Source: Psammoneis japonica
Lineage: Eukaryota
Length of the DNA stretch: 64,000 bases
Direction of reading: 5' to 3'
Assembly: GCA_008632985.1 (NCBI GenBank)
Contig: QPGO01000035.1
Span: 297,899 to 361,898 of the forward strand
The position numbers were made by a program, and so were the translations under genes. This document shows positions 11,856-64,000 of the stretch, piece after piece. The notes beneath the pieces were generated by a model that was given only the letters and a program-made list of their open reading frames with translations, was not told the DNA's origin and did no database searches. The first letter of the stretch is position 1; every line of letters begins with the position of its first letter.

Positions 11856-13438
11856 TTAGAGATCCCAAATGTCTCCGTATTCATGGCGCTTCCCACAATA
11901 CTTGCACGTGAAGGTTTTATCGGTGCGGTAAAAGCTTGGCAGAACATTCTGGTACGCGTCGGGTCCCGTGATGCAATTGGGATTCTTGCAAGAGATTTCC
12001 TTGAAATTGTAAATCTTGGGTGGCATGTCAACCCGGTACTTTGCCTTGACGGATCGGTCGGCAATCAGATTGACCGTGCAACCGGGAGACACGGCTGCAA
12101 GTTTCTTGAGCTCGTTGGGGCTCATTTCGAACACATCAGGCAAGGACATGATGCCTTTGTATTCCTCGTCGGGGTCGCTCGTGTGAAAAACACCATGAGA
12201 GCCTCTCACATTGAGCTTGAGGATGCGTCGAATCTTGGAGATGCGATCCCAAATAATCTCGGGAGACTTGCCCTTGGCAATGTGGTCAATGACCGTGCCA
12301 TCGTCGACGGGTTTAATGCCCACCTTGAAGCGGTCTTCGACGTGCGTCTTGCGAGTGACAGGAATCTCTGTAATGAAATGCTTTTCCTCGCTCTCGGGCT
12401 CGAGGCCCTTGCCGGTAAAGTCACCGCCGAGTTTGCCAGCCACGAGCGAGAGCTCAATGACTCGCGTAAAGTAACCATTCATGGCTTGCTCATCCCATCC
12501 GTTGAGAGGGAGAGCATCCAAAAAGGTTGGAATAACGGGTCGCTCGCGGTGTCGGGGAAGTGGGTGGTAAAAGCGGGTGTTTTCTGGAAGCTCAGGCAAC
12601 CACTTTTGTTGAAAGGTAACAGCCTTGCGGAGATCCTTTTCGCGATCGCGAATCTCATCTCCCATGCGCTCCAACTGAAGGCGAGTAAAGTACCAACAGT
12701 CACAAACCTTACCGGACTTGAGGTATTCTTCAATGCTGTCATACTCTCGAATCTCAAAGCCGTGTTGCAGCATAAGCGTCTTGTACGATTCTGGCATTTG
12801 AAGCTCGGGAGGAGCCACAAGATCGACAATTACCTCTCGAAAAACGCAGAGTCCATCTGCCTTAGAGTGGACGGTACGACCGTGCAGCAAATCTCCAATG
12901 AGCGCCACATGAATCTTGGAATCGTCCCATTGACGCTGTTCGAGAAAGGTGAATTCATCGAGAAACTCTTGCGTGGGATGCTCGTGACGTCCGTCACCCG
13001 CATTGATGAAAACGGGCTTTTCCCGACCGATCCGTTCGGCATACTCGGCGAGTTGTTCCTCCAGCGCCAAGCAGACGCCTTCCATTTTGGTGCGCATGAT
13101 AAAGATAGACCGACGGCCATAACCCACCAGCATCTTGATGGTATCCACAAGACTTCCTTTTTGGTAAAGGACGATGTGGCCGCGTCGAAAATGTTGAGTT
13201 TGACCTCGTGAAAGTTGGCAGCGCTTCGGAAGGACTCTTTGGTACGTGTGGAGGCTTCTAGAAACATGAGATAGACATTGAGGTCTGGGTCGACAATGCG
13301 AAACTCCGTCATGTCCTTGCCTGCCGTCCACGCAGCTTTGAGCTCACGCGTCTTTTGATACAGATAACGCTGCTCATCCACACTCAAATCACCCGCTGCC
13401 GCCAGAGTGCGGCCATGAAAAGGATTCGAGCCAGACAT
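11856..13438 (-). CDS. pyrBI: Aspartate carbamoyltransferase catalytic chain fused to the regulatory chain (PyrB-PyrI); frameshift near 13150
   Basis: ATCase motifs FLEASTRTKESF, INAGDGRHEHPTQ, GDLLHGRTVHS, YFTRLQLER and YHPLPR. These are followed by PyrI motifs DGTVIDHI, KGIM, TVNLI and the Zn ligands CKNPNC...CKYC. Confidence 0.92.
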
Positions 13439-25318: not shown

Positions 25319-26449
25319 CTAACACAAGCAGCTGCTCCAGCAGCCGCAGAAGATCATGCTCTTAAGCATGAGATCTGTTGTCATTTCATTCAGGATCTGT
25401 TGCACATGAAAGATCACCACGTCCGTGTGGGGGCGCGGTTCGAATAAGCTGACAGTTTTTAGGCGCTGCGTCAGAGTCTGAAAGATGAGCTCTATTGGAT
25501 TCAACTTGGGTGAATAAGTGGGAAGGTGCCAAACGAGCACATTCACAGGCAAGCCGTCGGGCCCGGGAGTCGTCCACATTGGATCTTGAAGTGTGTCGGA
25601 TTCCGCACCTTTGTGGATGACAGCATTGTCCAACATTAAAATATCTCCACGATTGAACCACCCTTGAACAAGAAGCATTTCCACAAATGCCATGAAAGCC
25701 GCGCTCGTGCCATTCTCCACTCCAACACTGTGCTTGATGGGCGCTTTTGTCTCATCCACTCCCATGCATGCTGTGAGATTGTACCGCTGCCGACAGTCAC
25801 CATCAACAGCCACATTGTCAGCTGTTCCTGTCAAAGGATTGACTCTCCCTTTTCTGGAAAAAATGTTGGTTCCTTCCACATGCTTTTCATCTGCAAATTT
25901 GAGTCGACGAGGGTCAAACTGTGAGATGAAACGTGTGAACTCAAAGCAATGCACGATGTTCTCGGGTTTAAACTTGTCAAGTGGCACAAGATTGCTCTTT
26001 TTGAATGATGCCTTGAAATCAAACCGAGAAGCAAACCATTCTGAAATAAAAGATGGGGAAACCAATTTGCCATGCGTCACGAGCAGCTCTTCCACATGGC
26101 TCTCATTCGACCTTGAGGGTTGTTGGAAACGAAGCCACAAAAGGTGGCATTCCTCCTCTGGAGTCAAAGCAATGGAACCAACACCTCTTACTCGCTCTTG
26201 ACTGCGAGCAATTATATCAGGATCAACCACACAGCCATCCAAATCAACTTCATCCATTGCTTTCTTCGCAAAGTTCCGAGAAACACGGCCCAATCTTGCG
26301 ACCTCAGCAACCTTTGGCTCCTCGCCTGTGACTGATGTCAATTTCAGTTCTTCACACACCCTTGCAATCTCAAGCTTCTTCAACACGTCATATGACTTGC
26401 CACGCCAGTAAAATCTGCCATTGGCATTCACGTCAAGCCCCGACGCCAT
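25319..26449 (-). CDS. DDE transposase (IS630/Tc1 superfamily, DDE_3-like), probably inactivated by Tyr->Cys/His changes
   Basis: HTH-like N-terminus and catalytic motifs KFADE, MLDNAVIH and LPTYSPKLNPIE. Confidence 0.88.
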   Translation of the reverse strand: MASGLDVNANGRFYWRGKSYDVLKKLEIARVCEELKLTSVTGEEPKVAEVARLGRVSRNFAKKAMDEVDLDGCVVDPDIIARSQERVRGVGSIALTPEEECHLLWLRFQQPSRSNESHVEELLVTHGKLVSPSFISEWFASRFDFKASFKKSNLVPLDKFKPENIVHCFEFTRFISQFDPRRLKFADEKHVEGTNIFSRKGRVNPLTGTADNVAVDGDCRQRYNLTACMGVDETKAPIKHSVGVENGTSAAFMAFVEMLLVQGWFNRGDILMLDNAVIHKGAESDTLQDPMWTTPGPDGLPVNVLVWHLPTYSPKLNPIELIFQTLTQRLKTVSLFEPRPHTDVVIFHVQQILNEMTTDLMLKSMIFCGCWSSCLC

Positions 26450-32923: not shown

Positions 32924-33859
32924 CTTTCTTGACACAAAACTTCTTTAGAAGGCTTCACTGGTAATCACAAGACCTCCTTGGATGACTCGACAACTGCGAC
33001 GCAAGTGGAAAGGCAATAACGCTGCGTTGATTAGTTCGTGGGGTCTTGTAGTTTCAACGCTCTCAACTGTGAGCAGCCGCAAGCGGTGTTGTCGAGCGAG
33101 CGACGCGACGCGACGGTGAGGGTCGAAAGAATCTGTCCGTCATGCGAACATTCGATGGGGCGCCATTTTGATCCCAGCATGTCCAAACGAAATCAATGTC
33201 AAAGTCAGACTATGAAGTTGACCAGCTCCGAAGAAAAGGTGAGGGTTTTCAGTGGGACAATTCTGAGTGGTTTGAAACATGAGGCCAAGCTGTGCCAGGC
33301 CCTTTCAAGACGTGCTCTCGGACAGGCTCTGGGTGGGGCCAGAGGAGCTTGCATGCAGAATTCCATGTGCTCAACATTGCATGCAGCCCCAGCACCCAGG
33401 GCTGGTGGGACATGTCTCCAAACAAGGCATGAGCCTGATTCATGCCACTTTTGGGCCCACTGGTGCTTGGTGCTGGGGGGTCATTGCCGCTGGTGCTTGG
33501 CTTGGTGTGTGCGAAGCGGCGGGACCCAGTGCAGTTGCCAGCCAAAACTTGCAGTGTTCACATGTCACTGCGAATCAGGGCATGTGTTCAACACCACAGC
33601 ACTGCTCTTTGATGGCCAAGAAGGCACCACACTTCTTGTCAGCTTTTGCGACCTCTTCACGCACCTCAAAATGGGGTCGGCAAAACAGCCCCCCATCAAC
33701 ACCTCATGGCACAAAAGAGAAAAAAGACCCAAGATTGTGCTGGAGTCAGATTCTTGAAGGTGGGGGATGGGGCTCAAAATGTTGCAGGAGCATTGATCTC
33801 ATCAATGAGTGCAGCCAACCTCCAGGACTTGATCTGAGCTGCCGTGTCAATGTTGCGAG

Positions 33860-34226
33860 TGCACTGTGCTCGAAGAACGAGTGCAAACGAAAGTAGAACA
33901 GTGTGCGAAAAGTGGAAATTATAAGATTAAATTTTGCTCTGTGATTTTTGGTTTCTCCGAACGAGTTCTCAATGGCCTAAAGCTTCTGTACTGCTTCTAC
34001 AGACAAAAGGCCTTTCGGAGAATGTGTTCGTGACAACAGATTGTCCGGATGCGATTGCTGTTGACACGCAAGATGTCAACATCGTCAATCGATCGTATTT
34101 GCAATTCTCGACATCCGATCAACTCTGTGTGATCGTTCTGTCCTTTGTACGCATCCACGACTGTGGTGCGATTGACACACAAATAATGTGCAATCACAAA
34201 CATGCACGTGACAGTCGCGTGCTGCA
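33860..34226 (-). repeat. 3' LTR of the Gypsy (the more TpA-mutated copy)
   Basis: Colinear without indels with 38232-38598 and adjacent to the PPT. Confidence 0.93.
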
Positions 34227-37200
34227 TTCGCCTCCCTAATTGCACATTAGAGTCATTTGTAAGTGGATCATTCGACGGACATCGACAGTGTCAACAATGT
34301 CTCCACTTTCACTGCATTGTGCCATTGGCAACAACTGTTGTTGTTTTGTATGGGCAACATGGGGCCGTTCCAATTTCCGAATGTCTTTTGAGAGTGACAT
34401 TGTTTGTTTCTCACTTAACATGCACACAAGCAGTGTTGCGTCGAGTGTTCTCATTGACGTTCTTGTTGATGTGAACACAAGGACTAATTGTCCTGGAGCA
34501 AGTGTTTTTCCTGATGTCGATTGCACATGGCATCGTGCCCAGCACTTAATGTGCGCTCTTAATCACGGCGTTCACTTGCTTGCTTCTTGTGGATTTCATG
34601 TAGTTTGGCGGGCTTGCTTTACATGCCATGTTGCTCTGCTGCACTGCCACGTTTCACAAGCAACAACAAACGATGGTCAAAGACATTATGACCATTTCGT
34701 CTTGATGATCAATCCTGTGATGGTTGTGAATTCCATCATGGATTTTTTTTTTTGCACTTCAACCATCTATCAGTTGGATTTTAATCGTCATTTGGACGTT
34801 TCTTTCTGACATGCCGGTGTCATTTTGTCATTCCGAAGGCACTGGTTTTGTGCACCAAGTGGGTGAATGTCCATTTTTCTTTTCTTTTTCTAGATCTTTG
34901 GCACATCTCGTGTGTCGACATGATGCACATTTTAATGTCTTGCCTCGTACATTGTACAATGCAACCGTGCGGGTGTTGTGAGATTGTCTTTTGCCAGTGT
35001 GAAGTGGATGCGTATAATGTGCACCAATCTGTCACTGTTTTTTCCTAAATCGTCCTTTAAAAAGGCGATTTTATCCTTGTGACATGAGCATTTTTCGATC
35101 TCGCTCGCCTCCACGAAAAGTGTTCGTATGATGTGTCGCGTCCGACAATTTGGAGGGAATGTCTTTATCCCGTTTTAACGGCAGGACATTGTCGTAGGAT
35201 TCAATTTTCTATGGTGAGTCGGCTGATCGTGTCTGTCGCGACGATGTTCGCCTTGCCCTCGTTGCACTCTAATTCGGGACTGAAGTTGTCAACGTATGAC
35301 TTTGTCCGTTGTGTCTTATGATCCGTGTGTGTATAAATCTGTTGGCCAAACAGTGTGTTTTGGAATTTTACAAGTGTTTTCACTGTGGACAGAAGTTCTT
35401 TTTTCCGTTGTAACGCACAACATTGAAATCCGTGCATGACAACAACATGGTTTTTGATTTGACACACTCCACATTTTCGGAGACTTTTCATTCCGTACTT
35501 GCACTTTTGCCGTTTGACCTTTATTGAGGTGAATTTGGCTGGCATTGCACAGGAGATCGTTGAGACTACATGTCTCGACAACAGTGACGTATGACAACGA
35601 GATGTCGCAGTGTTCTTTGCGTTTTTCTCGTGTTGCGATTGCTTGAATCGCCTCCATTTTCTTTGTAATCGATTGCACATCGTTACGCATGGAAGTCTTG
35701 ATAGTTTATTTCAAGTTAAATGGTGAAGGACTTTTGTTGTTAACCTTCTAAGCGACTGTTCTAGTCGTTTGAATGCCGCACTAAGCTGTCACTTGCACAG
35801 GTGACATTTTGAAGTTACTTTTGTCAGGCACAAACGATCACATGTGGTCGTTCTGACAACTTCAAACCTGTTGTGAGTTCACTCAAGTGTTGCACAAAAA
35901 TGTCTGGGGCTCCACAGATTCTCATTGGAAGTCCACAGTGCTCATTTTCTCCCCACGGCATGATTTTCGTGTGAGCACGACGTGTGCTTTTTTCATTTGA
36001 CATGGTGGCATTCCATGTTTGAATCAAATAGATTACACACATGAAACGTTCTTGCTTCAATGGTATTTCCTGAATGTTGGGTAAAGGATGCACCACCTGT
36101 ACGAACCTTGTGCTGAGCTTCTGAGTGTCGGACACGGTCGAACTCGACCTGTTTTCTTTAGACAATGAGTCTCAGAGCGACTCATTCAGAGCAATTTCAT
36201 TCTTAAGACTTCAATCTTTCATAATAGGTCAAACTCCTTTTGATTGGACGCCTCCAAAGACTGTGATAGGAGAAGGTTCTCACGCGTCGTGGAATCGCGT
36301 CAGATTTTCCACGATGAGATCCACTGATGCTTCCCATGCATTCGTCTGAGGAACTTTTCAAAACGATTTCAACCTCTTGAGAAGAAGATTGAGTTGGTTG
36401 TGTTCATTTGGGTTAGATGCATCGCCGTAGTTGTCACTTGATTAAGATCGATGGCGTGATAATGTGAGTCGAGGACCATTGGTTCCATTATTAACTCTAT
36501 TCACGGCGTCATATTTTTCAATGTGATCGGTTTTCAGCTTGAAAACATCGGCATCGAAGAGTGTATGAACATTCTTCATAAGGTAATTGCTTCTTCCCAT
36601 TAGATTTCTTCATTTGCGTAGTCCAATATGACTTGCAGGACTGGACATTAAGTCGCGTCCCATGATCATATCATTCGAACCTGAAGAAAATTTGGTGTTT
36701 TCAACATATACTGTTTGAATATCAGTATGCCTTAAATTTTCGCATAGTGAGAACTGAATTCGGTGTTTACTATCAGTCGTAAAGAGCTCACCCTTGGTTT
36801 CCCAAGTTTTTGGTGGCGGATTCTTGTGTTCTCAACTTTCGCACGAATTTGCGCAAAATTATGGTTGACGATGTTCCGTTATCGATAGGAACACGTAGAT
36901 GCTTTTTTTTTTTTTTTTTCTCTCCTTTCCCAAGGAAGTATTCATATAAATGATGACTCCTGGACTAGTATGAATTATTTCTGCCTTTTTTCTAGGCTTC
37001 CTAATATCCAGTAAAGCATATAATTCGTGAATAGACCAAAATTATTCTTCGGATTCAGTCTGGATCATCCGATCAAATTGGTATTTTTCTTCACTGAGGG
37101 TATCAGAATCTGATTCTTTGCCCTTATGCTCTTTTTCTTTGTTCAAGGAACTCGCTTTGAGTATTTTTTGAACCGCCTGATCAATCATGACGTTCATCTC

Positions 37201-38231: not shown

Positions 38232-38598
38232 TGCACTATGCTCGAAGAACGAGTGTAAACGAAAGTAGAATAGTGTACGAAAAGTGGAAATTATAAGATT
38301 AAATTTTGCTCTGTGATTTTTGGTTTCTCCGAACGAGTTCTCAATGGCCTAAAGCTTCTGTACTGCTTCTACAGACAAAAGGCCTTTCGGAGAATATATT
38401 CGTGACAACAGATTGTCCGGATACGATTGCTATTGACACGTAAGATGTCAACATCGTCAATCGATCGTATTTGCAATTCTCGACATCCGATCAACTCTGT
38501 GTGATCGTTCTGTCCTTTGTACGCATCCACGACTGTGGTACGATTGACATATAAATAATATATAATCATAAATATGTATATAACAGTCGCATGCTGCA
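38232..38598 (-). repeat. 5' LTR of the Gypsy (the less mutated copy)
   Basis: Colinear with 33860-34226 and retains the TATATA-rich tract at about 38548-38582. Confidence 0.93.
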
Positions 38599-40377
38599 CG
38601 AGAGAAGCTGAGAAGAAGTGTGCTGATGACTGGTGGCTGCACAACAAGAGGAAAAGAGCAAAGGAGCTGCCCAACAGCAAGCAAGCCATGACCCACTTTT
38701 TTGTTCAAGTTTGTCACCTCAAATGCCTGAAACAAAAGGACTTGTTCTTTGGAAATGGCGCCAGACTTTGCCCCCTTGTTCTCTGGCCCCAAATGAGAGA
38801 GCACACTTGGATTGACACGGGCATGAGAAGAGCCTCCAAGCCTCCTCTCATTGTTGCTTCATTTGATCTTTTCAGACCAAGCTCAACTTTTAACTTGCAT
38901 CACAGCATCATCTTCTGTCAACCAATGTCGTTCAATTGCAAGTGCTCAACAGGACGTCCAGGAATGTCTCGGTCAGTCACTTGACGTTTTTCTGCATGTT
39001 GGACAAATTGATGACAATGAGCTTCCACGCAGACACCTGCATGCTTTTTGTACGAGCAAGGGTCGCTGATGGAATCTTTTTTGGTTTTGGAGTTTGTTGA
39101 CGCATCATGCATCATCCCAACCACATCAAAATCTGCATCATTGGCTCAACTTTGATGAGAAACCCACCCAACAATTGGGGTTGACGAGGCATCTCATCAT
39201 GATGCACATCCAGGAAGTCTTTTGGCAGAGCACTGTGTGTGCTGGTCCATCTCAAATCAAGTGGATGTTGGCCACCAGAACAGCGGTCAATCGTTGTCAC
39301 CCTTCCTCAGCAGCCAGCAGGGGGGCATGCAATGGTGGAATGACTGGAGGAGGCCCCGTGTCTGGTGCCACTTTTGCAGATGATGGAAGTGCCGCCACAG
39401 CTCCCACCTCCCATGGAGTGCACAATTGAGACGAAAAACCCTTGTGGCCCTCAACAATTCTTTCTTTGACCCACTGGTGAGCTCTGGAATCTGATGGAAT
39501 CTCTGTGACCTGCAAGTGTTTGAACCTGCGAGTGTTTGAGCACAGAACAATGGAGTCAAATCTGCAAAAACTGTGCTTTCTGCAGGAGAAACACTTCAAT
39601 GATGCCCGCATCATTTTTGTTGTTGTGTTGTTGTTGCTGTTGTTTGCAATGCAGCATTGGGTGTTGCTCTGCAAGGAGTCCTCCACACAGGATTTGAGGC
39701 CAGTTGCTTCTCATGCCTTCAGGCCACACCAAACACTTTGATGGATGTGCGTGCTGTGAGCATCCCCCCAAGCAAGACGGAGCGAGGAGCGGCTCGGCTG
39801 CTGCGCCACTCCCTTGCTGCATGAGGAGAGCCTCCAAGCCTCTTGGCTGAAGCTCAGTGGTCTGCTTTAACACACCATCATTGTTGCTTCATTCGATCTT
39901 TTCAGACCAAGCTCAACTTGCAACTTGCATCATGGCATCATCTGTCAGCCGATGCCTCATTCGATCGATTTCAAGTGGTCAGTCATTTGACGTTTCTGCA
40001 CGGACATTCGAACGATAATGAGCTTCCACATAGAAATCTACGTGCAAATGTACGGGCACGGATCGCTGCTGGAAGAGAATCTTTTCTCGGTTTTTTCAGG
40101 TTGACGCATCACCCCGCATCCGCATCCCATTGCATTTTGCATGCTCGATTCAACACTCAACACCATCGCGTTCAAAAGACGTCAATCCCCACCCACGGAA
40201 CACGGGGTTCACCCAACTTGCTCTACCCAGCCTCATTGTTCGAAGCAGGAGCACCAGTGACGAAGTTTTGTCGAAAGGCCGCTTGCTCTTGAACGATTCA
40301 GATTCGTTCATCCCGAAAATCTAAGTTCGCGTTTGAGCAGATTCTACACAAGAATTATAGTAAAACCTTATTGACTC

Positions 40378-43317
40378 ATGGACTGGCCAGAGAACAACGG
40401 CCCGCTTCCAGCTACGCGAGATGAATTAGAAAAGGCACTCGAGGTGGTGGAGGAGGAAATGATGGATGCAGGGCGAAAGAAAGATTTTGCGCAAGCACAA
40501 GAAAAGGAACAGTATCTTTTGCAGCTAGAAGCGCTGAAAGAGCTCGTGCAGTCCAACAACAAGGAGGAAACAATCGAAACGTTAAACCAAGAAATAGACA
40601 AGTGCGTCCAGGAACGACATTGGAAAAAAGCAAAATGGCTTGATGACGCTTTGCTCAAAATGACGCAGCCTAAATCGCCAGAAACGAGCACCATTGAAGC
40701 CGTTGGAGAGGATGACTGTAACAGCTGCATCCTTCGAGATCACATGACAGTCTTACAGTCATATCCCTTGGCGTGGAGGGATAGGGACAAAGTGATACAT
40801 CCGTTCCCTCTTCCACCGGACTTTGAGCGAGAAGAGAAAACCGTTTTGCAGGCACTGCGTGATGCGACTGCAGACAGGCCACTCGAGATTGGAGTGTCTT
40901 TCTTTGGGGCGACCACCTATCGACTGGCAGCGTTCCTCGCTGCTCCAGGCAACCGTATTTTGCATTTATCGGGACATGGTGATGAAGGAATTCTTGCCAT
41001 AGAAAGTTGTGGAGCCTTGCAGTATTTGACAAATCATGAATTGAAAGAGTTGGTGGAGAACGGACCAGGGCATTTGAAGTTTGTCTTTTGTTCTGCGTGT
41101 TTTTCTCGTACCGCAGGGGAGGCCTTTTACCAAGCCGGGGTACCTCATGTCGTATGCTGCGAAGATAATGTGGATGACATGGCAACCATTGAGTTTACCC
41201 GTAATTTCTACCTGCAGCTTGCCAGTGGACAATATTTGGACGACGCGTTCAAACTGGCCAAGGCTGCTCTCAAGGTAGATGCCGCGGTCGGCGATGCCAA
41301 AGTCATTCTCTTACCCGAGAAAGACGAGGACGATCCTTATCACCATGTACAGATATTTTTCAAAGCATCTGCGGGAGAAAAGAACATCGTGAAGACCCCC
41401 GGAATGGTCAACCGCTCCATGCAACTACCTTCTTCTCCGCCTGGATTCTGTGGTAGACAGTTGGATATGTACAAGGTGATTGACTATCTCAAGAGCTCGA
41501 ATTTCGTCCAAATTTCAGGAGTTCCAGGTATCGGAAAGACGTCTCTCGCCCAAGCTGTGTGTGCCTACATTCACAGACGCATGGACATATTTCTGCTGGA
41601 AGATATCTTTTGGTTGCCGCCTCTGAGCAACAACCACAGTGGCAATGGTGTTGCTAGGTGCCTCCAGGAGGTCGTGCAATCAATAATGTCCAACGAAGTT
41701 AAAGCTGATTGTCACGGCTACAAATTATGCTGCGAGAAGGCAACCGGCCTCCTTCAGTGCATTCGTGGGCTGATATTCATTGATGCTTGCAAAATGCACA
41801 CTACATCTGCATTGGCAAAATTACAGCTGTTTCTCGAGATTGTTTTTCGTGGTGCGTTTCGAGTCTCTGTCGTTCTTATCACCCCTGCAGGTGAAGAGAT
41901 AAGAAGCTAGATTCTACCATTTGACGCGCGCATGGAGCTTGGTCCTATAGATATGAAGGCATCGGCGCTTCTATTTGGCAACCAATGCCAATTGGTGCGC
42001 CAGGGCCGGGATCCGGCAATTCGTACATCACAAGAACTCAAAAATTTGCTTGTCCTCCCAACCTACGCCAGCGCAACGGAAATCATGCCTTCCATGTCAA
42101 AGCGATGCTCTGAAATATTCAGTCGGATCGGAGAGGGGAATCCAAAGTGGATACTCGAAGCAGCTGACGCGATGACAGCAAACCCGCTCTTGTACGACGA
42201 ACTAATTAAAATCGGAATGAGAGAAGAATTTGACCGTGGGAACTTTGAGACTCGTGCTAGGGTGGACCGTGAATGCAAGCGCATCAAAGAGAAATTAGAG
42301 GCTGCGGCCGAACGTTTTGACTATGGGCAAGCAGCACAATTGGAATCAGAATTAGAGGAGCTGGATCAGCTAAAAAAGGTGCTGCCTACTTTAGGAAGAC
42401 TCGAACGTGAGGAAAAAGACTTGTGTGAACGCCTAGCGGAAGCGGACAAATCGAAACATTTTGATACGGCGAAGGACCTCTACTCTGGACTGGTCGAACT
42501 CAGAGAAAAAATCAGGAAAGAAAGGGAAGCCCTGGCAGATAATGAGGTTAGAAAAGACAAGCAAGATGGTGCTCCACCGATTCAGCAAAAAGATTCACAA
42601 GATGATGAGCGACCTCTATCTCCTAGCGCGATTGAAACCTTGTCCGGAATTTGCTCGTTCACCGTTTCTGCTAGCAATCCTGACCCCGAGGACTTCTCCT
42701 TTACGTTGGCCATAACCCAGTCTTCAGTTGTGGATTTTGACTTTGACTGCTCGGGCGGCGTTTCTGCCATTGTTTGTGCCACAAACGAAAACTGCCACCC
42801 TGTTACAGGCACTGCTATTGGGGCCATTAGTGAAGCCGGAGGCAAGGAATTGCAGGATGCTGTAGATGGACTCGAGTCAACAGAGGAGAGCAATTGGGGC
42901 CCCGTCCGGTGTCCGACGGGTGAAGCCAGAATAATTGGGCCTCCCACAGAGACACGGCACTATGGAAGTCTCAAAGTTGAGCACGTGATCTTTGCTGTAG
43001 GACCGACCTATGCAGATGATGATGGACCGGATGCCCTGTCACACAAGGATGAGCTGCTTCGCCTCGCCTACAGGTCCAGCCTCGAACGGGCAAAGGAACA
43101 CCACGTCGTAGCAGTTGGATTTTCCCTCATTGGAGCGGGTCACCGAACCGGTGGTAATTTGGAAAGGCCTTTGCGCATTGCGATTGAGACAATCTCCGAC
43201 TTTCGAGGATACAAGGAATTGAGGCACGTTGAACTTTTCGCTTTCAAACATCGTGAAGCCCTTCTCCTGAAGCGAATTGCTCACGACGTCGCGAAACACA
43301 CCGAAACTCTAAACTAA
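40378..43317 (+). CDS. Multidomain UVR-CHAT(caspase-like)-P-loop NTPase-UVR-Macro protein, interrupted by one in-frame TAG at 41908-41910
   Basis: CHAT His/Cys motifs ILHLSGHG and VFCSACFS. FCGRQLD...ISGVPGIGKTSLA (NB-ARC/STAND-like). UvrB/C-like helices such as LEAAAERFDYGQAAQL. Macro motifs CPTGEARI, HVIFAVGPTY, LAYRSSL and GFSLIGAG. Both ORFs are in the same frame. Confidence 0.8.
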
Positions 43318-45013: not shown

Positions 45014-45200
45014 GCTTTTTTGTCAACTTGCTATTTTTGACATTCTGTGGAGCCATAACGGTGCCGGCAATTAGAGGATGCTGTTTTGCATTCGTTCCCT
45101 AGCTACATTCGAACATGGCAGGGCGATGTGCCGTTGTGGATTGTGGAATTCCAGAATGGTGCGGTGTGGTGGTGCGGGGTGCGGACGGATCGACAAGGCC

Positions 45201-47387
45201 GGGAGTTGCATGAAATGTCAAAATTTTCATTTTTCCCTGCAAAAACGCACAGAATGTCAGAGAGACCTGCCTGCACGTGAGTGCCGCCACAGTCTGCACG
45301 ATGCTGCGAAAGTTTGTGCACTTGCCACCAAAATGCTGCTCGCACTTTTTGCCAGGGGACATGCCACAGACACACAATGTTGCATTTGGCTGCAGGACAA
45401 ATCCTGTGTTTTTGGGGCTCTGTTTGATTTGACAAAATGTCGAAATTCCATGGAAGGTTTCTCAACAATTGCCTTTTTTCCCAACCAGTGCTGAGACAAA
45501 ATGCCCCCAGAAATGCAGGTGGTTGTGTCTTCACCAGACCCCGCCAAAATTTCTCGTTGAGAAGACAACCCACTGGATGGAATGAGAATGTTTAAATGAT
45601 GTTGCACAGTGCGTGAAAAATGACAACCTGCACTCACTCAATTGGGTTGGCATGGTGACATCAAGCACTGAAATGAACGACAAAACGGTGCGACAATCGA
45701 TGATGACGACACCTTCTATCGGTGCCTGCCTGTGCGCTCATTTTCTACTGTATTCAAATTTGTATATCCATATATACATCATAAGTAGTTGCCATGAGCA
45801 CATCACGTTGTCGGTCACGGCGTTTCTGCACGCATGATGATGCGCATGGCACCGTACGACTGCAAGAGACGCCGTTGAGTTCCCTTCTCGATCCCGAACT
45901 CCGATTTGAACCAGTCACGACTGTCTCAACCTCATCGCTTCGTGCGATAGTACAATTTCAAATTCAAACCCGCCAAATAGCTCCAACCGCCAAAACCAAA
46001 AAAGGCCTCTTGGGGGGGACTGGGGCTAGAGACTATTTTGGATTATTGTCGTTCAAGATTCCCTTGCGTGCCGTTCCAAAAGCGTTCCAAAAGCGTTCCA
46101 AAAGCGTTCCGAGAACGTTCTCATATGCACTAATTCGCGCGGAAATCAAACTTTGGAGCCGGTCAATTCGCCAATGAGACATGTGATGCATTGTAATTAG
46201 TGCACTATTGTTAGAACTATTTGAGTATGGCACAATAGTGTAAAAGTTTAACAGATTATATGGATTTATTGCAAAAAGGTACACCCGTCAAAACAGGTTT
46301 CTATTTTCTCTAAGAAAAAGAACGGCTGGTAGAAGTCTCAATAATTTTGAGTTACAGTGGCTATAAGTTGAACTATAAGGGTGTGTTGTAACTACTAGTA
46401 TTGTTTGACAATAAACCATATCTATAACAACCGCCAATAGCTCCAACACGGAAATACCATTCGACGAAATAGGCATTTCGTCATTCCCGTGTTTCCACCG
46501 TTCCGGGACCGTACCAAAAGCGTTCCCGAAGGGAATCTCTCTAAAAGGCCTAACATCAAAACATTGTTTTTAGACGTTGGAAACGAATGAGAACCCTGCC
46601 CGATAATACATGGAACCATCAATCCACCTACGGCAACAAAAACACTGCTGTATGGCAATAGCGCGGTATCAATCATTTTAGCATAGTGTAAAACATCAAA
46701 TGCGCAACACACGACTGTACCACTCACCATGCAAATGCGCCTGCCCAGAGCCACAGTAGATTGTCTTGCAAGGACAGTCATTCAGAGGCAGACAAGATCG
46801 GAATGGATTTGGAACCAATGGGTTCGCGTCATACTTGAGCACTTTGCAGGACATACAGTAGTGTGCGAGTTGTGGGGCCTTCTTCAAGATGAAGGCAACC
46901 TTTCTCATGGGTTCCTGCCCACTCACTTGTTGTGTGCCCTTGTTTTCTGAATCTGCATTGTTCTGAAACCATTTTGCCGGGAATCTGTGGTGGAGCACAC
47001 GAAGACACGATAAGAAAATGGTTTTGTGTCGGAATAGAGTTAATTGTAAATCTGGACTTGTTGCGTACCATCATTCCAATCTCTTTTTGAAAATCAACGT
47101 ACTGGCATTAGCTTCACCATCTTATCATCTTAGATTGACTGGTAACACAGGTTTATGGATGATAATGGCATGCACGGTGACGGTGGACGGCACTGACTTT
47201 CGCTTCGCATCAACGAACCATCGCCGCGTTCGCCGTTCGACCCCATCTTCTATCTGGTGTCTGGTGTTCGCATAGCCCAAAATGCAACGTTTTAGGGGAT
47301 GTGTAAAATGAATTATCGTCACGAAAAAACACGAAAAACCACGAAAAACAGGGAAAAACGAAAATTTCGACATTTCATGCAACTCCC
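45201..47387. mobile_element. Putative non-autonomous TIR element of about 2.2 kb with 39-bp imperfect TIRs
   Basis: GGGAGTTGCATGAAATGTCAAAATTTTCATTTTTCCCTG at 45201-45239 matches the reverse complement of 47349-47387 with 2 mismatches, both CG/CA. No transposase recognised; TSD uncertain (possibly CCG). Confidence 0.7.
46072..46110. repeat. Short tandem repeat (CGTTCCAAAAG) x ~3.5
   Basis: Read directly: cgttccaaaagcgttccaaaagcgttccaaaagcgttcc. Confidence 0.8.
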
Positions 47388-47519: not shown

Positions 47520-49600
47520 CGTTTTTGTGTCTAACCTGTTGTTATGTGTCAGGTTGCAACGGAGTCCAACCAGAACTCCAATCACCACATCTTCCTCTAT
47601 TTTCATCGGAAGCATGACAAGGGTGCCTGCTCAATTGTGCAGAGGGCATGGGAGGTGGGATGCGAACTCCCTTTTCCTCTGGTCGGATTTTGGCGAGAGC
47701 CTTTTCATTGACCACTCAGTGGTTGATGATTGCAGACTTTTTCATGTCTGTCAGGCAGTCGGGGGGTCGGGCAGTCGGGCAGTTTGTCCTTCAGAATTTG
47801 AGAGTGTGTCCCTCGGATTTTGGAGCGGCATGTGTTGTTCAGCACAAATTGATTCTTCTGATTTGGAGAATGATCATCAAGGACATTGGAGGTCATGGGG
47901 GCATCCTAAAAAATTGATGAATTCTCTACGATGGGTGCATGGGGAGCTGTTTTTCAGATGAGCTCGAAAGCACTGTGAAACTGGGATTGCCAGTGCGGCA
48001 TGTTGAAAACTGCACTCAGCTTTGAACGAAGACAATTTGTCATGGATTGCACACAAAAAAGTCACATTGAAAAAAAGCATGTTGAAAAATGAGTGGGTTT
48101 GTGCGATGTGCCATTTCAGCGATGAATTGAAAAAAAAGAGTGTCCGTGCACCTCGCTGCAGCCCCAAAAATGGCATGATCCATCAAATGTGACCGTCATC
48201 CACGTGGCCACTCTGCCACTGCAATGCCAGCCCCCTGTGGCAGGGCCCTGCACAAGCACAGGCAGTGCAGCATGCAATGGCACACACCCACACCCACACC
48301 CACAAAGAAAGACAAGTGGTCAATGCTCCCCGTGGGCCTGGTTTCTGGCTGGCCGGCAACTGCCTCACAAAAAGCAAAAAGTTTCAAAACAATGATGCCA
48401 ACAATGCCATCAGTGGCCGTTGTCCCTTTCCACAAGAAGCAGTCATTGGGACCCAACAAAATGCCAATGTTTTGCATTGTCCATGCAGTGGGTGCCTTGA
48501 TGCTGTGCAGTGACGGGGTCTCCTCAAAGGGTTTCACACAATGACTGTGACTGGGACAAGAACAATGCAGCAGCAAAGCCCTCTTCAGGGTTCTCAATCA
48601 ACTTGGGGCTTCTTCAATGGCAGTTCCCTGCCATGATTGTCACAAAACCAGAAAGCAAAGGGTGGCAGTCTACAAGCTGATTGTCTTCAATTGCTCTGCA
48701 GTGAGAAAAACAGTGTGAATGCATTTGGTGAGTGTGAGAAAAAAGCAAAGAAGGAAAACAAAATGAAGTGCAGCACTGGAGTAAAAAGAGGAAAGAAAGG
48801 CAAGGCCAAGAAAGGAAGAAAAAAATGAGGAAGGAATGCAAAACAAAGAAGAGCATCAAGAAGAAGAAGAAAATGCACAAGAAGACACAGAAGGACTCCT
48901 CCACCATTGTCTTCACCAACATCTCCACCAACGTCTCCACCAACAGATGCCCCACTCTGCCACCAAGTCACGGCAAGCAGCAAATTGCTTGAAAAGGCAT
49001 GAGAGAATCAAGAATGTCCTGGTTGTGCTTTGTTTGTGTGAAACCTTCTCTCACACTTATTTCTTCTTTCAAAAATTTAACTGTGCAAGTGCAGCCTTTT
49101 GTTGGAGCAACTGATGCAGCCAGCAGGTTGCAGAGCATTTTGTGGTTGGGCAAAACACCAGAGGAGGCAAATTTCAAGTGCAACAGTTGACATGCTACAA
49201 GATGAAATGTTTGCAAGATGCAGTGAAGCTGGGGCACCAAGAATGCAGGGCTTTGTTGTTGTTCCTGAGAAAGACCAGTTGACAATTCACATTCATCAGC
49301 AGAATCAGAGTGCAGTGGGTGCCGCTGTCATCCCGGAGGCATCCTGATCTTAAACATCAAGCAGACAGGCCATAGAGTGTGTGCAAAAGGCTGTGATCCA
49401 AAAGCACTTGGATGCTGGTGCTGGATGAGAGTTCATGAGAAAGCAGCAGCTGCGTGCATGTCAGCCTGTTGCCCATGTGAGAGCTTGAGAAAATCAGGCT
49501 CATGCATGGTGCGTGAACAACAAAGCTGCTAGCACATGTAAGAAAAAAGAAGAAAAACAAAGATGACAGATGCCCAAGTTTAGCCTGGCTCTCTTGAGTA
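47520..49600. repeat. Heavily degraded, unclassified repeat relic (TpA- and CpG-depleted)
   Basis: Very few TA or CG, an excess of TG/CA, and overlapping Cys/His-rich junk ORFs in all frames. Confidence 0.55.
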
Positions 49601-49793: not shown

Positions 49794-51686
49794 TCAGAGG
49801 TACTTCTCCAGTGGATCAAAAAAATTCCTGGGAGGAGGTCTGCGCCTCGTCGTTGACTTTTCCAAGACGGATCCAATTCGAATCAGCTTGTGCTCTGTCC
49901 ACGCATCTCCTAGGATTTGAAAACCAATTGGAAGTCCAGTCGCCTCTTCGTATCCAACAGGAACAACCAATCCTGGCAACCCCAACAGGTTAGCGAGAGG
50001 CACAAAACGCATCGTCTTGTACACCAAGGCGTTGTCCGACTCTCCGTATCCACGATAACCCGGTTTTGGTTTCGGCACTCTATTACCAAGCATTGGTGAC
50101 ACGATTGCATCTAACTTCTGTCCACGGAAAAGATCCCGTAATATTCGCATGCCATATGTTCGGAGCTTTTCTGCCGCCAAGACCTCTACAGCAGTTACAA
50201 TTCGTCCCAAGGCAACTGTGATTGCTGTACTTGCCTCCAAATTGTAATCTGGGTTGAAAAAGGGGGCTTCCCACGATATGCCAAACTCTGTCAAAGTCTT
50301 GGCGGCGTGACTCATATGCAATTCGCGCAAATGAGGAATGGTGATATTCACAATCTCCGCACCTTGGCTTTCCAAATAGCGCACCGCTTCTAAACACGCC
50401 TCGTAAATTTCTGAGTCGGTATGTTGAAAGTGATCCCAATAGACACCCAAACGTGTGCCCTTCAGATTGCTTGCTCCAACAGGAACTGTTTCATTTTGAT
50501 TCTGAATAGCAACCGTGTCCAAATGGGGTGGTGGCAAGTACGCCTCGCCAATTAGCGTTGCAGCAAAACTTTCTGGTTGAATCTGTCCCAATAAGAGATG
50601 GCTCAAGGCGATATCCGTCATGGTTGCCGCCAGTGGACCAGCCTTGGCCATGGTGGATCCCGCGCTCTCCTTATACGCTACACGTCCAAAGGTCGTCGCC
50701 AATCCCAACGTTCCCGACATGCTTGCTGGTACTCTAACCGACCCACCACCATCCCATCCAAGTGCCATGGGAACAAGCCCAGTGGCAACGGCCACAGCAG
50801 AACCACTTGAACTTCCGCCTGGATAATAATCCTCATCGAATGGATTAAAGGGACCGTCAAACGCGACACAGTATCCGAGAGGCGACATACCGCCTTCGAC
50901 CATGGTAGTCATCCCAATAATTATTGCCCCTGCTTGTCGAAAGATCTGGGCCGGGTAGTCATCTTGATCAATGTCCTCTCTACACTGCGAAGATCCGCGA
51001 CACATTGGAAAACCGCGAACTGGTGATTGGTCCTTGATGGCAACAGGCACGCCATCCCATACGGACAGCGGTTGCCCTTTTTTCCATCGTTGATCCGAGA
51101 GTTTTGCTTGCTCACGAATGTTGTCAGGCAAAAAGGAAGCAAACATGTGCAAATGCTCCAATCGCTGCGCTCCCTCCATGATTTGTTCCATAACTTGAGA
51201 AGGAGTTGCCTTGCCGGATTGGTAGACATGATGATAGTCCATGATGCTTCGATAGTTCGACAATTTCGGTTCAATCTCGAGTCCCTCTTGAAGAAAGCGG
51301 CTGTGTTTTTCAGCCATTTCTCGCGCGCGCTCCATGTCTGTTGTGTTTGTCACACGGTGGGCTGGATGATGGGTCGGAGGCAACGACTTGCAGGCGGGTG
51401 ATGCCGCCAATTCTCGAATCAAATGAAATCCATTCTTGTTGAGCAGTGAACGAAGAACAAAGGGACTTAAAAACGATCGAGCAAAAAGCCAGCTGGCGAA
51501 ACGGAGTTGCGGACCTGACACTGCCGGAGCCTTGACATCCACAAGGTTGTAGGATGTGTCAAGGTCCGAATCATCGAGTTGTCGAATCGGGATTTCTTGC
51601 AAGATTTGAAACAGAGGGACGACAAGAGATAGCATAACGACGCCGAACCACATGCGGGTGTTCCATACGGCCTTTGGAGGAGCCAT
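49794..51686 (-). CDS. FAAH: Fatty acid amide hydrolase-like amidase
   Basis: Amidase signature DGVPVAIKD, PGGSSSGSAVAVA and GWDGGGSVRVPAS. N-terminal TM segment. Intact 630-aa ORF. Confidence 0.88.
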   Translation of the reverse strand: MAPPKAVWNTRMWFGVVMLSLVVPLFQILQEIPIRQLDDSDLDTSYNLVDVKAPAVSGPQLRFASWLFARSFLSPFVLRSLLNKNGFHLIRELAASPACKSLPPTHHPAHRVTNTTDMERAREMAEKHSRFLQEGLEIEPKLSNYRSIMDYHHVYQSGKATPSQVMEQIMEGAQRLEHLHMFASFLPDNIREQAKLSDQRWKKGQPLSVWDGVPVAIKDQSPVRGFPMCRGSSQCREDIDQDDYPAQIFRQAGAIIIGMTTMVEGGMSPLGYCVAFDGPFNPFDEDYYPGGSSSGSAVAVATGLVPMALGWDGGGSVRVPASMSGTLGLATTFGRVAYKESAGSTMAKAGPLAATMTDIALSHLLLGQIQPESFAATLIGEAYLPPPHLDTVAIQNQNETVPVGASNLKGTRLGVYWDHFQHTDSEIYEACLEAVRYLESQGAEIVNITIPHLRELHMSHAAKTLTEFGISWEAPFFNPDYNLEASTAITVALGRIVTAVEVLAAEKLRTYGMRILRDLFRGQKLDAIVSPMLGNRVPKPKPGYRGYGESDNALVYKTMRFVPLANLLGLPGLVVPVGYEEATGLPIGFQILGDAWTEHKLIRIGSVLEKSTTRRRPPPRNFFDPLEKYL

Positions 51687-60478: not shown

Positions 60479-61702
60479 TCAAACAAAGAAACGAAGCAAC
60501 CAAAGAAGTGTAACGCCGGTGATCCACAATGTGCTCCCTTGCAACGGATTTGCGATTCCACTTGGAGGACTGGACGGGTTTGGTGTAGGTCCAGCAGAAG
60601 CGCCTTCATCAATGACACAAAAGCGTTCCGCAATGACTGCGCCACCAGCCTTTTGGCATTGAGAAACCGTGTTGCTGGTGTAGCAAGTATCACCATAACA
60701 TGTTGGACCCACAACCTTGTTGTTGCTGCCCAAAAAGACACAAAAATGACCTGCAATGTCTGTGCCTCCTGCAGAATTGCAATCTTGAGTAGTTTGACCC
60801 GTATAACAAGTGCTGCCCCAGCACGTGGGTCCAGCCATGGCAGCCTCTCCCTCCAAAACACAAAACGTGCTTCCAACGTTTATTCCTCCAAGAGAATTGC
60901 AGGCAGAAGCCGTGGCTCCGGTGTAGCAAGTGCCGCCGTAGCAAGTTGGTCCGACACTTGTAAACTTTTCTTTTCCAGACACAACGCAAAAGACGTCGCC
61001 AATATTGACACCGTTCAGTGACGAGCACATGGATTGCGTTTCACCAACGTAGCAAGTGGTTCCAGAACAAAAGGGCCCCAAAACAGAATAATCTGTGCCT
61101 TCCAGGACGCAAAAGTAGTCTCCAATGTTGGTACCACCCAGCTGCTGACAAGCGTTGTTTGTTGCGCCAGTATAGCACGTACTACCAAAGCATGTTGGAC
61201 CGACGACTGTGTGCTTCTTGTCCAAGACGCAGAACCGATCGCCAATGTTGGAACCTCCAAGTGAAGTGCAAGCTGATGCAGTGGCACCCGTCAGACAGGT
61301 TCCACCAAAGCATGTGGGTCCTACGACAGTGTATTCGGTCCCATCAAGGATACAAAAGCGTGAGCCAACGTTTTCTCCCTCCAACGCAGTACACACCGAT
61401 TCTGTGACCCCGTAAAGCACTCATCCTTCCAACAAGTGGGACCAACAATTGTCTTATTGGAAAAGTAGCACATTTGTACATTGGAAAACGAGATGCCTCC
61501 CATCTTCACAGTTTGTCACTACGTCATAGCAAGCCCCATCGTAACAAAATGGCCCATCTGCCAAGAAGTCAGAACTTGGCCAGCTCCACCCTCCGCGGCG
61601 TACTTCAAATTGTCGTGCACGACTGTAGAATTCTGGCGGTTGGGCCTCAAAGGATGGATAACCCCAACGAGCCACTTCATCGTCGTCGGTGATGTTGCTC
61701 AT
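60479..61702 (-). CDS. Cys-rich tandem-repeat surface protein (~8 x 41 aa) with a hydrophobic C-terminus; frameshifts near 61415 and 61500
   Basis: Repeat consensus VGPTCxGxTCYTGxTxxxCxxLGGxNIGxxFCV, a Pro/Ser linker and tail LWITGVTLLWLLRFFV. The start codon is uncertain. Confidence 0.78.
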
Positions 61703-61935
61703 GGTTTACACCTGCGGCCACTTGTTTGATCTTACCGGTACTTTAGAAGCTTAGAAGATATATCATATAAAAGATCTGAGATCGAGATCGATGCGCACGC
61801 ACATGCGCGAAAAGATCCATGAACGCAAGATCGTGAATGCTGCAATCATTCTGCGGGGAATTTGGAGTCTGCAGCTGCCACTCTACTAGAGAGTGGAGCT
61901 CTAGAGCTCTGGCTCTAGAGAGAGAGTACGAATAG

Positions 61936-64000
61936 CTGGCTGCCGGCAGCAGTGGCAGCACATGCATTGAACACCTCAAAAGACAGTGTGACTCAGTGAC
62001 TCATGACTCATTGGGCACGATGTCAGCCAACAGCCGGTCCCCACCAAAGTCACCCCAGCGGACTTCAGTGGATTGCAGCCATTGATGGGTGCATGAGCTC
62101 CCATCAATGTTGAAGGTGGCCAGCCACAAATTGTTGACGGATGGCAAGATGTGCCATGATGCCATGTCTGACCTCCAAGATGACCCTCTGCTGCTGGCAT
62201 CTTTGACGAGTGTGGGGGCTGCTGCTGCCAAATCTCTCATCAAGGACTTGTGTGTGGGGTGCCAAAGCCAACAAGCGAAAGGAGCTTGCTGGAGCTCTGG
62301 AAGACAACAACACTCACAAGAACCACAGTGCTTCCTCCAAGCTCATCAGCAACCAGGCTCAAGTTGAGATCACAGCCTCGAGATTCTCTCTCTGCGCTCT
62401 CTCTGAGCCCTCTTCTTCTCCAGTTGGCAGAGCAACCCCACCTGCTGTGCCAGAACTTTGCCAATGAGCACAACTGCTTTCATTGTCACCAAACATGCAA
62501 GCCACCAGATGGCCTTCAAGATTCTCTCTGACAAGACACTTGGAACATTTTGCATCAGCCTGGCATGTGTGCCCTGCCACCCATGATCCTTCAGCTTGCA
62601 ACGTGTGTCTTTGCTCTCCCAGCAATGGGGAGCTTGCTTCGCCTGCCATCAAATCCTGCCACAACAGCTCTGCTGGTTTGCCAGATGGGGAAATCAGGGT
62701 GCACAAGACACCAGTCTTTGACCCCTCAGACATTGTTGAGGGTGCACTTTTCCGGCAAGGGAAAAAAAGACTGACAGCATCATCACCAGGCTTGCATCAC
62801 CACCATGACAGCAATGTTGTCAACAACCCAGAGCGTGCTGCAGCAAGTTCATTTGTTTGGTCAATGGCATCAAGTGACTGCACAAAGAGAAGTTCTTGCC
62901 TGCAATGGCATTGTTCATTTGGCAAAGCAAGAAGAAGTTCTGCCACATGTTGTTGCACAAAGGGCTGCCAAAAAAGCCTTGAGGCATCACTTCAACTTGG
63001 GAAGGTTTGAGGTGCAATGCCATGCTTGGGGGTGGGAGAGTGGGGGCTTCATGGCAGAGACTTTTGGCTGTCATCATCAAGGGCAATCTTGTCACATGTG
63101 CCATCTGCTGTGCTGCATGTCCCGTGAGAGTGACCTTCTTGTTGATGCTGAGGGCCAAAAACATTTCCATGCCACTGCAAGAAACCAGAAGAAGCTCCTC
63201 CACATGGCCAACCAAGCTGGGCTGTGGTCCTCCCACACTGTGCCTTGCTGCAAGCATTGTCTTGAAGCCCCTCCTTGGGACCACAAACATGCGCCATGAC
63301 CCTCAACAAGTGTGGCAGCAACTGCAAATGGGGAGAGATGCAGCGGATCTTCAGATGAGCCAACTTGATGAGTGATCTGTCTTCCATGACTGGAGCTGCT
63401 GCAAGGGCTCTAGGAGCATCCCAGCTGGATGCAAGAAGATCTGAGTGCACCTGGTGTGTGTGCAGTGTGCAAAGCACAACAGCACATTGTGGGACATGAC
63501 TTGTGGTGGACATCACAGCATCTGCTCTGGTGGAGCAGCATCTCCTCATGGGCTTTGCCTGGTGATCTTCATGGCCAAGCTCAATGAACTCAAGATTCAG
63601 GCCACCGGCAATGGCAGCGCACCACACCTTAAAGCTGCAGTGAAGAAGAAGTTGCACATTGTTGTGGACCCTGAGTTTGAACAAGAGAGCTTGAGGGTCA
63701 CATCCTTCTCATTGCTCACAAGGCTCTGTGTGGCCTTTGCAGCTCTGGAATCAGGTTGCTTGTGAGTGCTTTCCTGATTGCCTGCATGCTGAAAACACTT
63801 CTTCCCCCATGCCTTTCCAACAAGCCTGACATCTGGACACACAGGCAGGGAGACCTCTGTGAGTGCACTGCAGTCTGTGTCAATGACCTGGATGTGATCA
63901 CTGTGAAGGGTCCCCAGGAATTCATGGATGCTGTGTCAACATGAAGTGCAAACACTCAAGCTCAAGGGCACTGGACCAATTGCGTTGGCACTCCATCTTG
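61936..64000 (+). mobile_element. Ty1/Copia (CoDi-like) pol relic, extremely mutated, continuing beyond the window
   Basis: Remnants GCKKI*VHLVC, KALCGLCSSG, KPDIW..GDLCECTAVCVNDL and KLKGTGPI correspond to the Copia RT motifs GYKKIRVHLVY, KALYGL, YVDDL and KLKGTGP. Confidence 0.85.

Follow-up and report, generated by a model that had tools for sequence, protein, structure and literature searches.

The last 2065 bases (positions 61936–64000) of a 64,000-nucleotide stretch of contig QPGO01000035.1, Psammoneis japonica assembly GCA_008632985.1 (the whole stretch is referred to here as the window), are almost devoid of the dinucleotide TpA. It is probable that this island is what remains of the pol gene of a Ty1/Copia-type retrotransposon (reverse transcriptase family RVT_2), now dead, truncated at its 5' end and frameshifted, from which TA has been erased by TpA-specific transitions in the nuclear genome. 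The evidence laid out below supports the view that the relic records, at saturation, TpA-directed hypermutation in a second and distant lineage of algae, the process itself having already been described in Bigelowiella natans. The properties newly measured here are a preference for a pyrimidine 3' of the adenine (T-A-Y), randomness between the strands, and independent hits in paralogous copies. These properties, together with the specificity for TpA and the strand symmetry of the changes, were measured in a related family of metagenomic Copia elements and not in the relic.

Within 61936–64000 we counted two TpA dinucleotides where base composition predicts 118.6 (observed/expected ratio, o/e, of 0.02) and 19 CpG where it predicts 139.8 (o/e 0.14), and the depletion of TpA is matched by an excess of TG and CA, each present 240 times (o/e 1.95 and 1.78, respectively). 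The sole remaining TA sites lie at 63411, in CTAG, and at 63630, in TTAA. In 2000 mononucleotide shuffles of the relic the number of TA averaged 118.6 (standard deviation 8.3) and never fell below 94, and the Poisson probability of finding two or fewer is 2e-48 given the base composition and 9e-32 given the TA frequency of the remaining window (3.86% of dinucleotides). The longest TA-free run, 1478 bases at 61933–63411, compares with a mean TA gap of 30 in the window, and the GC content is 0.52 for TA-poor DNA versus 0.47 for the remaining window. TA is under-represented outside the window's TA-poor islands too, with an o/e of 0.55. An earlier note on this DNA had read only these two TAs against about a hundred expected, had proposed a sliding-window count of dinucleotides, and had labelled the island an end state. 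The exact counts bear out the first claim, each of 599 other windows of 2065 bases (step 100) holds at least 14 TA (median 75), and the label is a fair one, the relic being the window's most extreme island for both TA and CG loss. The island and its landmarks are as follows:

61936–64000, + strand: TA-free (two sites excepted), CpG-poor island, a probable 5'-truncated, frameshifted Ty1/Copia-type pol relic that reaches the window end (dinucleotide counts, TA-free gap, tblastn colinearity).
61927–61935, no strand: left edge of the island, with the last ordinary TAs in GTAC (61926–61929) and ATAG (61932–61935) (sequence, gap list, bridging contig).
63411–63412, no strand: surviving TA in CTAG, a refractory Y-TA-R context, Y being a pyrimidine and R a purine (counts, context analysis).
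63630–63631, no strand: surviving TA in TTAA, likewise a refractory Y-TA-R context (counts, context analysis).

The loss of TA ends abruptly at 61935, and the composition of the flank is normal. The left boundary of the process can be placed only to within some tens of bases, because a cluster of CTCTAGAG-type palindromes lies just outside the island, at 61880–61930, and its TAs are mostly in CTAG, a refractory context. A neighbour of the relic with normal composition is the open reading frame (ORF) at 60482–61420 (- strand, 313 aa), which is rich in Cys/Gly repeats and belongs to no Pfam family.

The membership of the relic in Copia is supported by transitive homology. When the reading frames of the relic, including read-through translations with X at stops, were compared with Pfam at E ≤ 10, no reverse transcriptase (RVT_2) or integrase match was obtained, and a blastn comparison of the relic with the 64-kb window returned only the self-match. 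A phmmer search with the translation of 63702–63998 gave nine proteins at E ≤ 1e-3, the best at 7e-8. One of these, P0126, is a repetitive protein and probably a spurious match; among the other eight, seven match RVT_2 in Pfam, three of them above the gathering cut-off. Longer relatives were collected in a search seeded with an intact relative, P0129, which yielded 1258 proteins at E ≤ 1e-10; all of the 120 listed among these 1258 carry RVT_2 (PF07727), and many are about 1850–1975 aa long. Compared by tblastn with the whole window, the 120 polyproteins produced 248 segments at E ≤ 1e-3, every one of them on the + strand and within the relic, in the bins that begin at 62500, 63000 and 63500; the strongest segments cover 63108–63993, and the best summed E-value is 6e-28. 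With weaker segments included, 62246–63993 is colinear with pol residues ~900–1590 of ~1900, and the frame changes five times or more along it. The homologous segments are:

62246–62439, + strand: weak colinear matches to pol residues ~900–970 (six queries at 62246/62252–62374, E 0.001–0.7; two queries at 62407–62439).
62618–63293, + strand: region upstream of the reverse transcriptase, pol residues ~1080–1360, in two frames (P0243 at 62618–62836 and 62889–63293, summed E 2e-25; P0155 at 62889–63293, E 1e-7).
63334–63678, + strand: N-terminal half of the RVT_2 reverse transcriptase (many tblastn queries, 35–43% identity over ~120 aa).
63687–63993, + strand: central reverse transcriptase in another frame, with KALCGL, C-E-C and CVND (phmmer, tblastn, alignment).

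The first part of the island, 61936–62245, is TA-free and has no detectable homology. In Pfam, four full-length relatives matched RVT_2 only (4/4), at about residues 1330–1610 of ~1900, which leaves ~1300 aa upstream and ~300 aa downstream. This position of RVT_2 fits the Copia order protease, integrase, reverse transcriptase, RNase H, but no integrase domain was detected in them. The relic lacks the 5' part of the element, namely gag, protease and the beginning of pol, and the 3' part lies beyond the window end. The relic contains stops, and because of the five or more frame changes, back-mutation of bases alone cannot reopen its frame. The Copia origin claimed for the island in the earlier note is thus upheld through the colinear match of 120 RVT_2 polyproteins to 62246–63993, the relic itself being without a Pfam match.

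The direction of the change can be read from three conserved motifs of the reverse transcriptase, as established from the sequence and from its alignment to relatives:

63729–63731, + strand: TGT (Cys) at the Tyr position of KALYGL.
63858–63866, + strand: TGT GAG TGC (C-E-C) where relatives have Y-E/K-Y.
63876–63887, + strand: TGT GTC AAT GAC (CVND) aligned with the catalytic YVDD.

The catalytic site is therefore present in the relic but destroyed, CVND standing where relatives have YVDD. KALYGL, YEY or YKY, and VYVDD are intact in two of the phmmer relatives; five have Cys or His at those Tyr places and a Tyr content of 0–1.1%, compared with 3.1–7.0% in intact relatives. Codon fates were tabulated for 201 alignment columns in which at least 20 relatives are aligned and at least 70% of them agree. 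The 11 columns with a conserved Tyr hold no Tyr in the relic, where six have become TGY (Cys), three CAY (His), one TGA and one TCC. Conserved Arg is kept in only one of 14 columns, the others reading CAY (four), TGC (two), TGG (one), TGA (one) or something else (five). Most residues whose codons are free of TA and CG are unchanged (Pro 9/9, Ser 5/5, Cys 3/3, Gln 3/3, Leu 16/22, Gly 14/20). The same alternatives recur in further short members of the family: the variable residue of KAL?GL, found in 96 of 117 of them, is Y in 76, C in 16 and H in four, with nothing else, and the three tyrosines of Y-E-Y...V-Y-VDD read YYY in 55 of 78, with mixtures of Y, C and H in 21 of the remaining 23. Since intact relatives encode Tyr, the direction of change is supported as loss of TA in the relic. 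The active-site codons are as the earlier note had read them, and its further claims, that KALYGL became KALCGL and YEY became CEC and that TA was the state lost, agree with the alignment and with the nine TGY or CAY codons in the 11 Tyr columns. Intact relatives read KALYGL, YEY/YKY and VYVDD, which excludes the case, raised in that note, that they naturally carry Cys. The note had also explained the D to N change of CVND by CpG decay across the codon border, GTC GAT to GTC AAT; relatives with GTC GAT do exist, which makes this step plausible as an inference.

Metagenome contigs were searched for patterns matching the Cys/His forms of the motifs; of the 230 stretches that matched, 68 were confirmed as loci. 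Their TA o/e ranges from 0.00 to 0.80, with eight of the 68 at or below 0.13; examples of depleted loci are L052 (no TA in 1030 bases), L002 (one in 1372) and L056 (seven in 3837). By blastn the relic shares one 34-base match with the 68 loci and no DNA-level similarity otherwise, so that several Copia families, probably in several hosts, carry the signature of TA loss. Twelve of the loci constitute one family of ~78–92% identity. Of the 146 TA of its least mutated copy, L033, none is left in the most mutated copy, L056, where 66 read CA, 64 read TG and 16 something else. Transitions A>G or T>C at TpA thus account for 130 of 146 sites in this family, as they do for the nine TGY or CAY codons among the 11 conserved Tyr codons of the relic. 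With a state taken as ancestral when 80% or more of the other copies share it, and with each TA counted twice (folded sites), private A>G changes in L056 affect 31 of 64 sites at TpA, compared with 16 of 294 at ApA, 18 of 322 at CpA and 13 of 325 at GpA; given the double counting, the first figure means that nearly every TA has changed once. No leaky A>G outside TpA rises above the background level (4–6%) in this copy, and private C>T changes at CpG amount to 15 of 109.

Both TG and CA occur among the 12 copies in 99 of 136 inferred ancestral-TA columns, which shows that the copies were mutated independently. In none of the 12 copies did a runs test of the order of TG and CA along the element detect a departure from random, and no strand-coordinated (kataegis-like) clusters were found. 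In the same family the mutation rate depends on the base 3' of A, being 0.35 for C, 0.34 for T, 0.20 for G and 0.16 for A. Given this T-A-Y preference, a TA in the context Y-TA-R is unfavourable on both strands, and survivors are enriched in exactly this class: it makes up 12 of the 29 surviving TAs in the window's seven TA-poor islands (378 of 2094 in the remaining window; p=0.003) and 42 of 71 in the eight depleted loci (232 of 1227 in the eight least depleted; p=6e-13). The opposite context, R-TA-Y, is found in two of the 29 and one of the 71 survivors, and both survivors of the relic, CTAG and TTAA, belong to the refractory class. Sharp edges in TA density, similar to that at 61935, are also present in loci L030 and L023.

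The seven TA-poor islands of the window are alike in TA (o/e 0.02–0.08) and range in CG from an o/e of 0.14, in the relic, to 0.76, and metagenome locus L052 has no TA at a CG o/e of 0.84. As TA is saturated while CG varies this widely, the loss of TA must be the faster process and is separable from that of CpG, in agreement with the earlier proposal of two processes converging on TG and CA. Decay of CpG as a second, slower process in the relic is supported by these ratios. LTR retrotransposons of Phaeodactylum are CpG-methylated, according to the accessible text of PMC2806351, and by analogy CpG methylation of diatom LTR elements would be the ordinary explanation for the decay of CpG in the relic.

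How the relic may have reached its present state can be outlined as follows. After integration, a TpA-specific transition would convert each TA by A→G (giving TG) or T→C (giving CA), each site being decided on its own, with either strand hit at random, until two TAs remained. The process would be confined sharply to element-derived DNA, and a second, slower one, the deamination of methylated CpG, would remove most CG and also yield TG and CA. That the process works on double-stranded DNA after integration, taking the TAs singly and on either strand, is suggested by the equality of TG and CA, their random interleaving, the independent hits in paralogues and the existence of all degrees of depletion, and the sharp edges at 61935 and in L030 and L023 indicate that the element, and not some broad region, was targeted. 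Within the window, confinement to mobile DNA was observed at the edge of the relic only. By analogy with B. natans, the agent would be a host defence against mobile DNA, in which a hypothetical TadA/ADAT2-like adenine deaminase acts on DNA at 5'-T-A-Y and the resulting inosine is read as G. This is our preferred chemistry, although we hold it tentatively and with somewhat less than even confidence. In tRNA, U33 precedes A34, and the T-A-Y preference resembles the U33-A34-C35 substrate, which is the reason for favouring a TadA/ADAT2-like deaminase. A tabulation of deaminase motifs in the review PMC10661471 gives that of TadA/ADAT2 as 5'-ACG at tRNA position 34 and that of ADAR as 5'-UAG.

The main alternative to an adenine deaminase, possible in our opinion but doubtful, is a symmetric modification of TpA in silenced DNA (hydroxymethyl-uracil or a J-like base on T, or methylation of A) that miscodes or deaminates faster, as 5-methylcytosine (5mC) does at CpG. 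TpA is palindromic like CpG, the two strand outcomes are 1:1 (240/240 in the relic, 66/64 in the family) and random by site, as slow decay predicts, all degrees of TA loss are met across loci (o/e 0.00–0.80), and 5-hydroxymethyluracil in dinoflagellates prefers TpA. The T-A-Y preference, on the other hand, fits the substrate context of a TadA-type enzyme, and the main text of the B. natans preprint gives a rate ~1000-fold above background with mutations in only 11 of 15 lines, which suggests an activity that is switched on. Editing before integration, in which the element was modified as RNA (ADAR-like) or cDNA (APOBEC-like) and inserted already mutated, would account for the untouched flank, and ADAR favours U before the edited A, as stated in the accessible texts of PMC10661471 and bioRxiv 10.64898/2026.01.13.699255. 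Editing of one strand, however, predicts elements with TG only, CA only or long runs of either, at odds with the 240/240 of the relic and the randomly ordered 66/64 of the family. ADAR moreover prefers a 3' G (PMC10661471, accessible text), a base disfavoured here (0.20 versus 0.35 for C), a 5'-truncated internal piece of pol is no normal product of integration, and the B. natans mutations, as far as the preprint's main text describes them, arise in DNA that is already integrated. Taken together, this makes pre-integration editing improbable.

Two further explanations would deny that the relic is a mutational end state at all, and to both we assign a very small probability. A composition native to the element's lineage, or kept by selection for avoidance of TA and CG, might draw on the window-wide under-representation of TA (the o/e of 0.55 outside islands), but a sequence without TA cannot encode Tyr, which makes up 3.1–7.0% of intact relatives and occupies their motif positions, and the frame of the relic is broken by stops and by five or more shifts; the fates of the Tyr codons and the Tyr of intact relatives refute native or selected TA avoidance in practice. 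An artefact of assembly or sequencing might be suspected given that only one DNA run, possibly the source sample, was found to carry the stretch, and no RNA run. The assembly was checked against contigs of that public run, X1, which were built by a different assembler (Logan) and are contigs, not raw reads. One of 652 bases (depth 59) bridges the left edge, covering 61535–62185 with no other letters and one gap, and another of 2058 bases (depth 61) covers 62157–64000 with two other letters in 1844 bases and one gap; the depth over the relic, 59–61, compares with 58 in the flank. These contigs argue against misassembly, and not against systematic read error, and X1 may be the source sample of the window. 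The same signature is found, in addition, in 68 unrelated metagenome loci and in database proteins. As a separate observation on X1, the summed depth of matching contigs is ~60 over most of the stretch and reaches 442 at 62111–62211, up to 2947 at 62313–62615 and 862 at 63121–63221, and 27 of the 45 matching contigs are only 90–95% alike; short parts of the relic therefore resemble high-copy sequence in the sample.

Some points weigh against reading the relic as the product of a TpA-specific transition process targeted to mobile DNA. Whether A or T is the base attacked cannot be distinguished from sequence. The relic is truncated at 61936, so a later deletion, instead of targeting, could explain its sharp left edge. 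The relic's own spectrum comes from a protein-guided comparison of codons and not from DNA pairs with a less mutated copy, and the family that supplied such pairs consists of metagenome contigs of unknown hosts, ascertained by Cys/His patterns, whose copies share ancestry. In locus L019 (1–4033) the density of TA rises at ~3000 from about 1 to 8–18 per 250 bases, the pol homology continuing to 4033. In the family alignment, the TA sites of L029 fall into clusters of mutated and of unmutated ones (40 runs versus 61 expected). For L019 and L029 alike, the pattern could stem from a chimera of the metagenome assembly, from copies that recombined, or from targeting of only part of the element.

The closest known system to the TpA hypermutation described here is that of B. 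natans. In a mutation accumulation experiment with this species, de novo mutations arose at ~6e-7 per site per generation, almost all of them TpA>TpG or TpA>CpA and confined to an integrated giant-virus (nucleocytoplasmic large DNA virus, NCLDV) region and a virophage region (Mettrop et al., bioRxiv 10.64898/2026.01.13.699255, main text). The same text reports 124 clusters of TpA-poor, CpA+TpG-rich windows in the genome and an enrichment of reverse transcriptase and DDE domains among low-TpA coding sequences, and its authors propose a genome defence with an ADAT2-like deaminase, for which they name an ADAT2 candidate (bioRxiv 10.64898/2026.01.13.699255). The two systems, as far as that text goes, have in common the change of TpA to TpG or CpA on both strands, foreign or mobile DNA as the target, and TpA-poor, CpA+TpG-rich clusters. 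They differ in host and target, B. natans being a chlorarachniophyte with viral targets and the present host a stramenopile, probably a diatom, with a Copia retrotransposon. This placing of the host, away from B. natans and near diatoms, comes from one gene, the amidase at 49794–51686, and its named matches. They also differ in extent, the relic being saturated (o/e 0.02 versus 0.45 given for the B. natans NCLDV region) and having CpG decay superimposed. The rate has been measured directly in B. natans, whereas the process here is known from its sequence footprint alone. The T-A-Y preference, the randomness between strands and the independent hits in paralogues do not appear in the main text of the preprint, whose supplementary tables may hold such data, and that main text mentions neither diatoms nor the wider sequence context. 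For diatoms or other stramenopiles, no report of TpA hypermutation was found in the literature searched, including the accessible texts of PMC2806351 and bioRxiv 10.1101/2025.10.24.684338.

Like repeat-induced point mutation (RIP) of fungi, the process destroys repeated or mobile DNA in place by dinucleotide-specific transitions with sharp borders. Fungal RIP turns CpA into TpA by C>T changes, which enriches TpA and lowers GC. Here, by contrast, TpA is lost and GC is higher, at 0.52 compared with 0.47 in the remaining window, and the TpA enrichment expected of fungal RIP is absent. The same comparison with RIP is made in the Discussion of the B. natans preprint (bioRxiv 10.64898/2026.01.13.699255). 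Decay of CpG through 5mC, which has affected the relic as well (CG o/e 0.14), is similar in that it acts on a palindromic dinucleotide, is strand-symmetric and yields TG and CA; the TpA process hits another dinucleotide and base, and is much faster, with TA o/e at or below 0.08 where the CG o/e is up to 0.84. Editing by ADAR or APOBEC is likewise a deaminase-driven hypermutation of parasitic nucleic acid, and ADAR likes U before A. These enzymes, however, act on RNA or single-stranded cDNA with a strand bias, ADAR having a 3' G preference (PMC10661471), whereas the changes described here are symmetric and random by site, with a pyrimidine preferred 3' of the adenine.

On this basis we put forward, as a proposal that we would not yet back at even chances, that diatoms, and hence at least two distant branches of SAR (stramenopiles, alveolates and Rhizaria), run a RIP-like defence in which a TadA/ADAT2-derived DNA adenine deaminase, acting at T-A-Y on either strand, erases TpA from integrated, double-stranded mobile DNA, saturated relics being its fossils. 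If the process is the same as in B. natans, TpA hypermutation would be a wider algal genome defence against transposons that is able to run to completion. TA-free, TG/CA-rich islands offer a simple genome-wide marker of old mobile DNA missed by profile searches, such as the Pfam search that fails on the relic, and the loss of TA explains why algal and metagenome annotations contain 'orphan' reading frames that are rich in Cys and His and lack Tyr. The choice of candidate enzymes is narrowed by the preference for T-A-Y and by outcomes that are random between strands and from site to site; a DNA adenine deaminase that occurs in nature and has a defined motif would also be of interest to the base-editing field.

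Six further TA-poor islands are present in the window, at 274–1599, 23536–25118, 33049–33894, 38581–40016, 45104–45593 and 47598–49530. Their TA o/e is 0.03–0.08, TG and CA are at 1.3–1.8, and the CG o/e is 0.27–0.76. A Pfam search of 33 reading frames from these islands and their flanks gave nothing convincing, and the Copia polyproteins have no tblastn match in them; they are probably other hypermutated mobile relics. Adjoining the island at 23536–25118 is an ORF at 25319–26449 (- strand, 376 aa) with a DDE_3 transposase domain (E 1.5e-11), in a stretch whose TA o/e is 0.33; the ORF may be a partly mutated DNA transposon. At 35204–35710 (- strand) there is a weak match to RT_RNaseH (E 0.003, below the cut-off), in a region (33–36 kb) where the TA o/e is 0.19–0.40, and this may be a Gypsy-type relic.

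Just downstream of the island at 38581–40016, an ORF with a CHAT protease-like domain and a STAND NTPase (40378–41910, + strand) is directly followed by one with a Macro domain (41932–43317, + strand), and the two look like an immune or cell-death gene pair, judging by their domains. The ORF at 11856–13331 (- strand) contains the catalytic domains of aspartate carbamoyltransferase and both PyrI regulatory-chain domains, an apparent fusion of catalytic and regulatory chains. The amidase encoded at 49794–51686 has a best match of 61% identity; among named matches, the best, both diatoms, are a genome bin of Bacillariaceae sp. (53%) and an entry 'Fragi...' from a transcriptome (44%), followed by a dinoflagellate (44%) and by a haptophyte and ochrophytes (39%).

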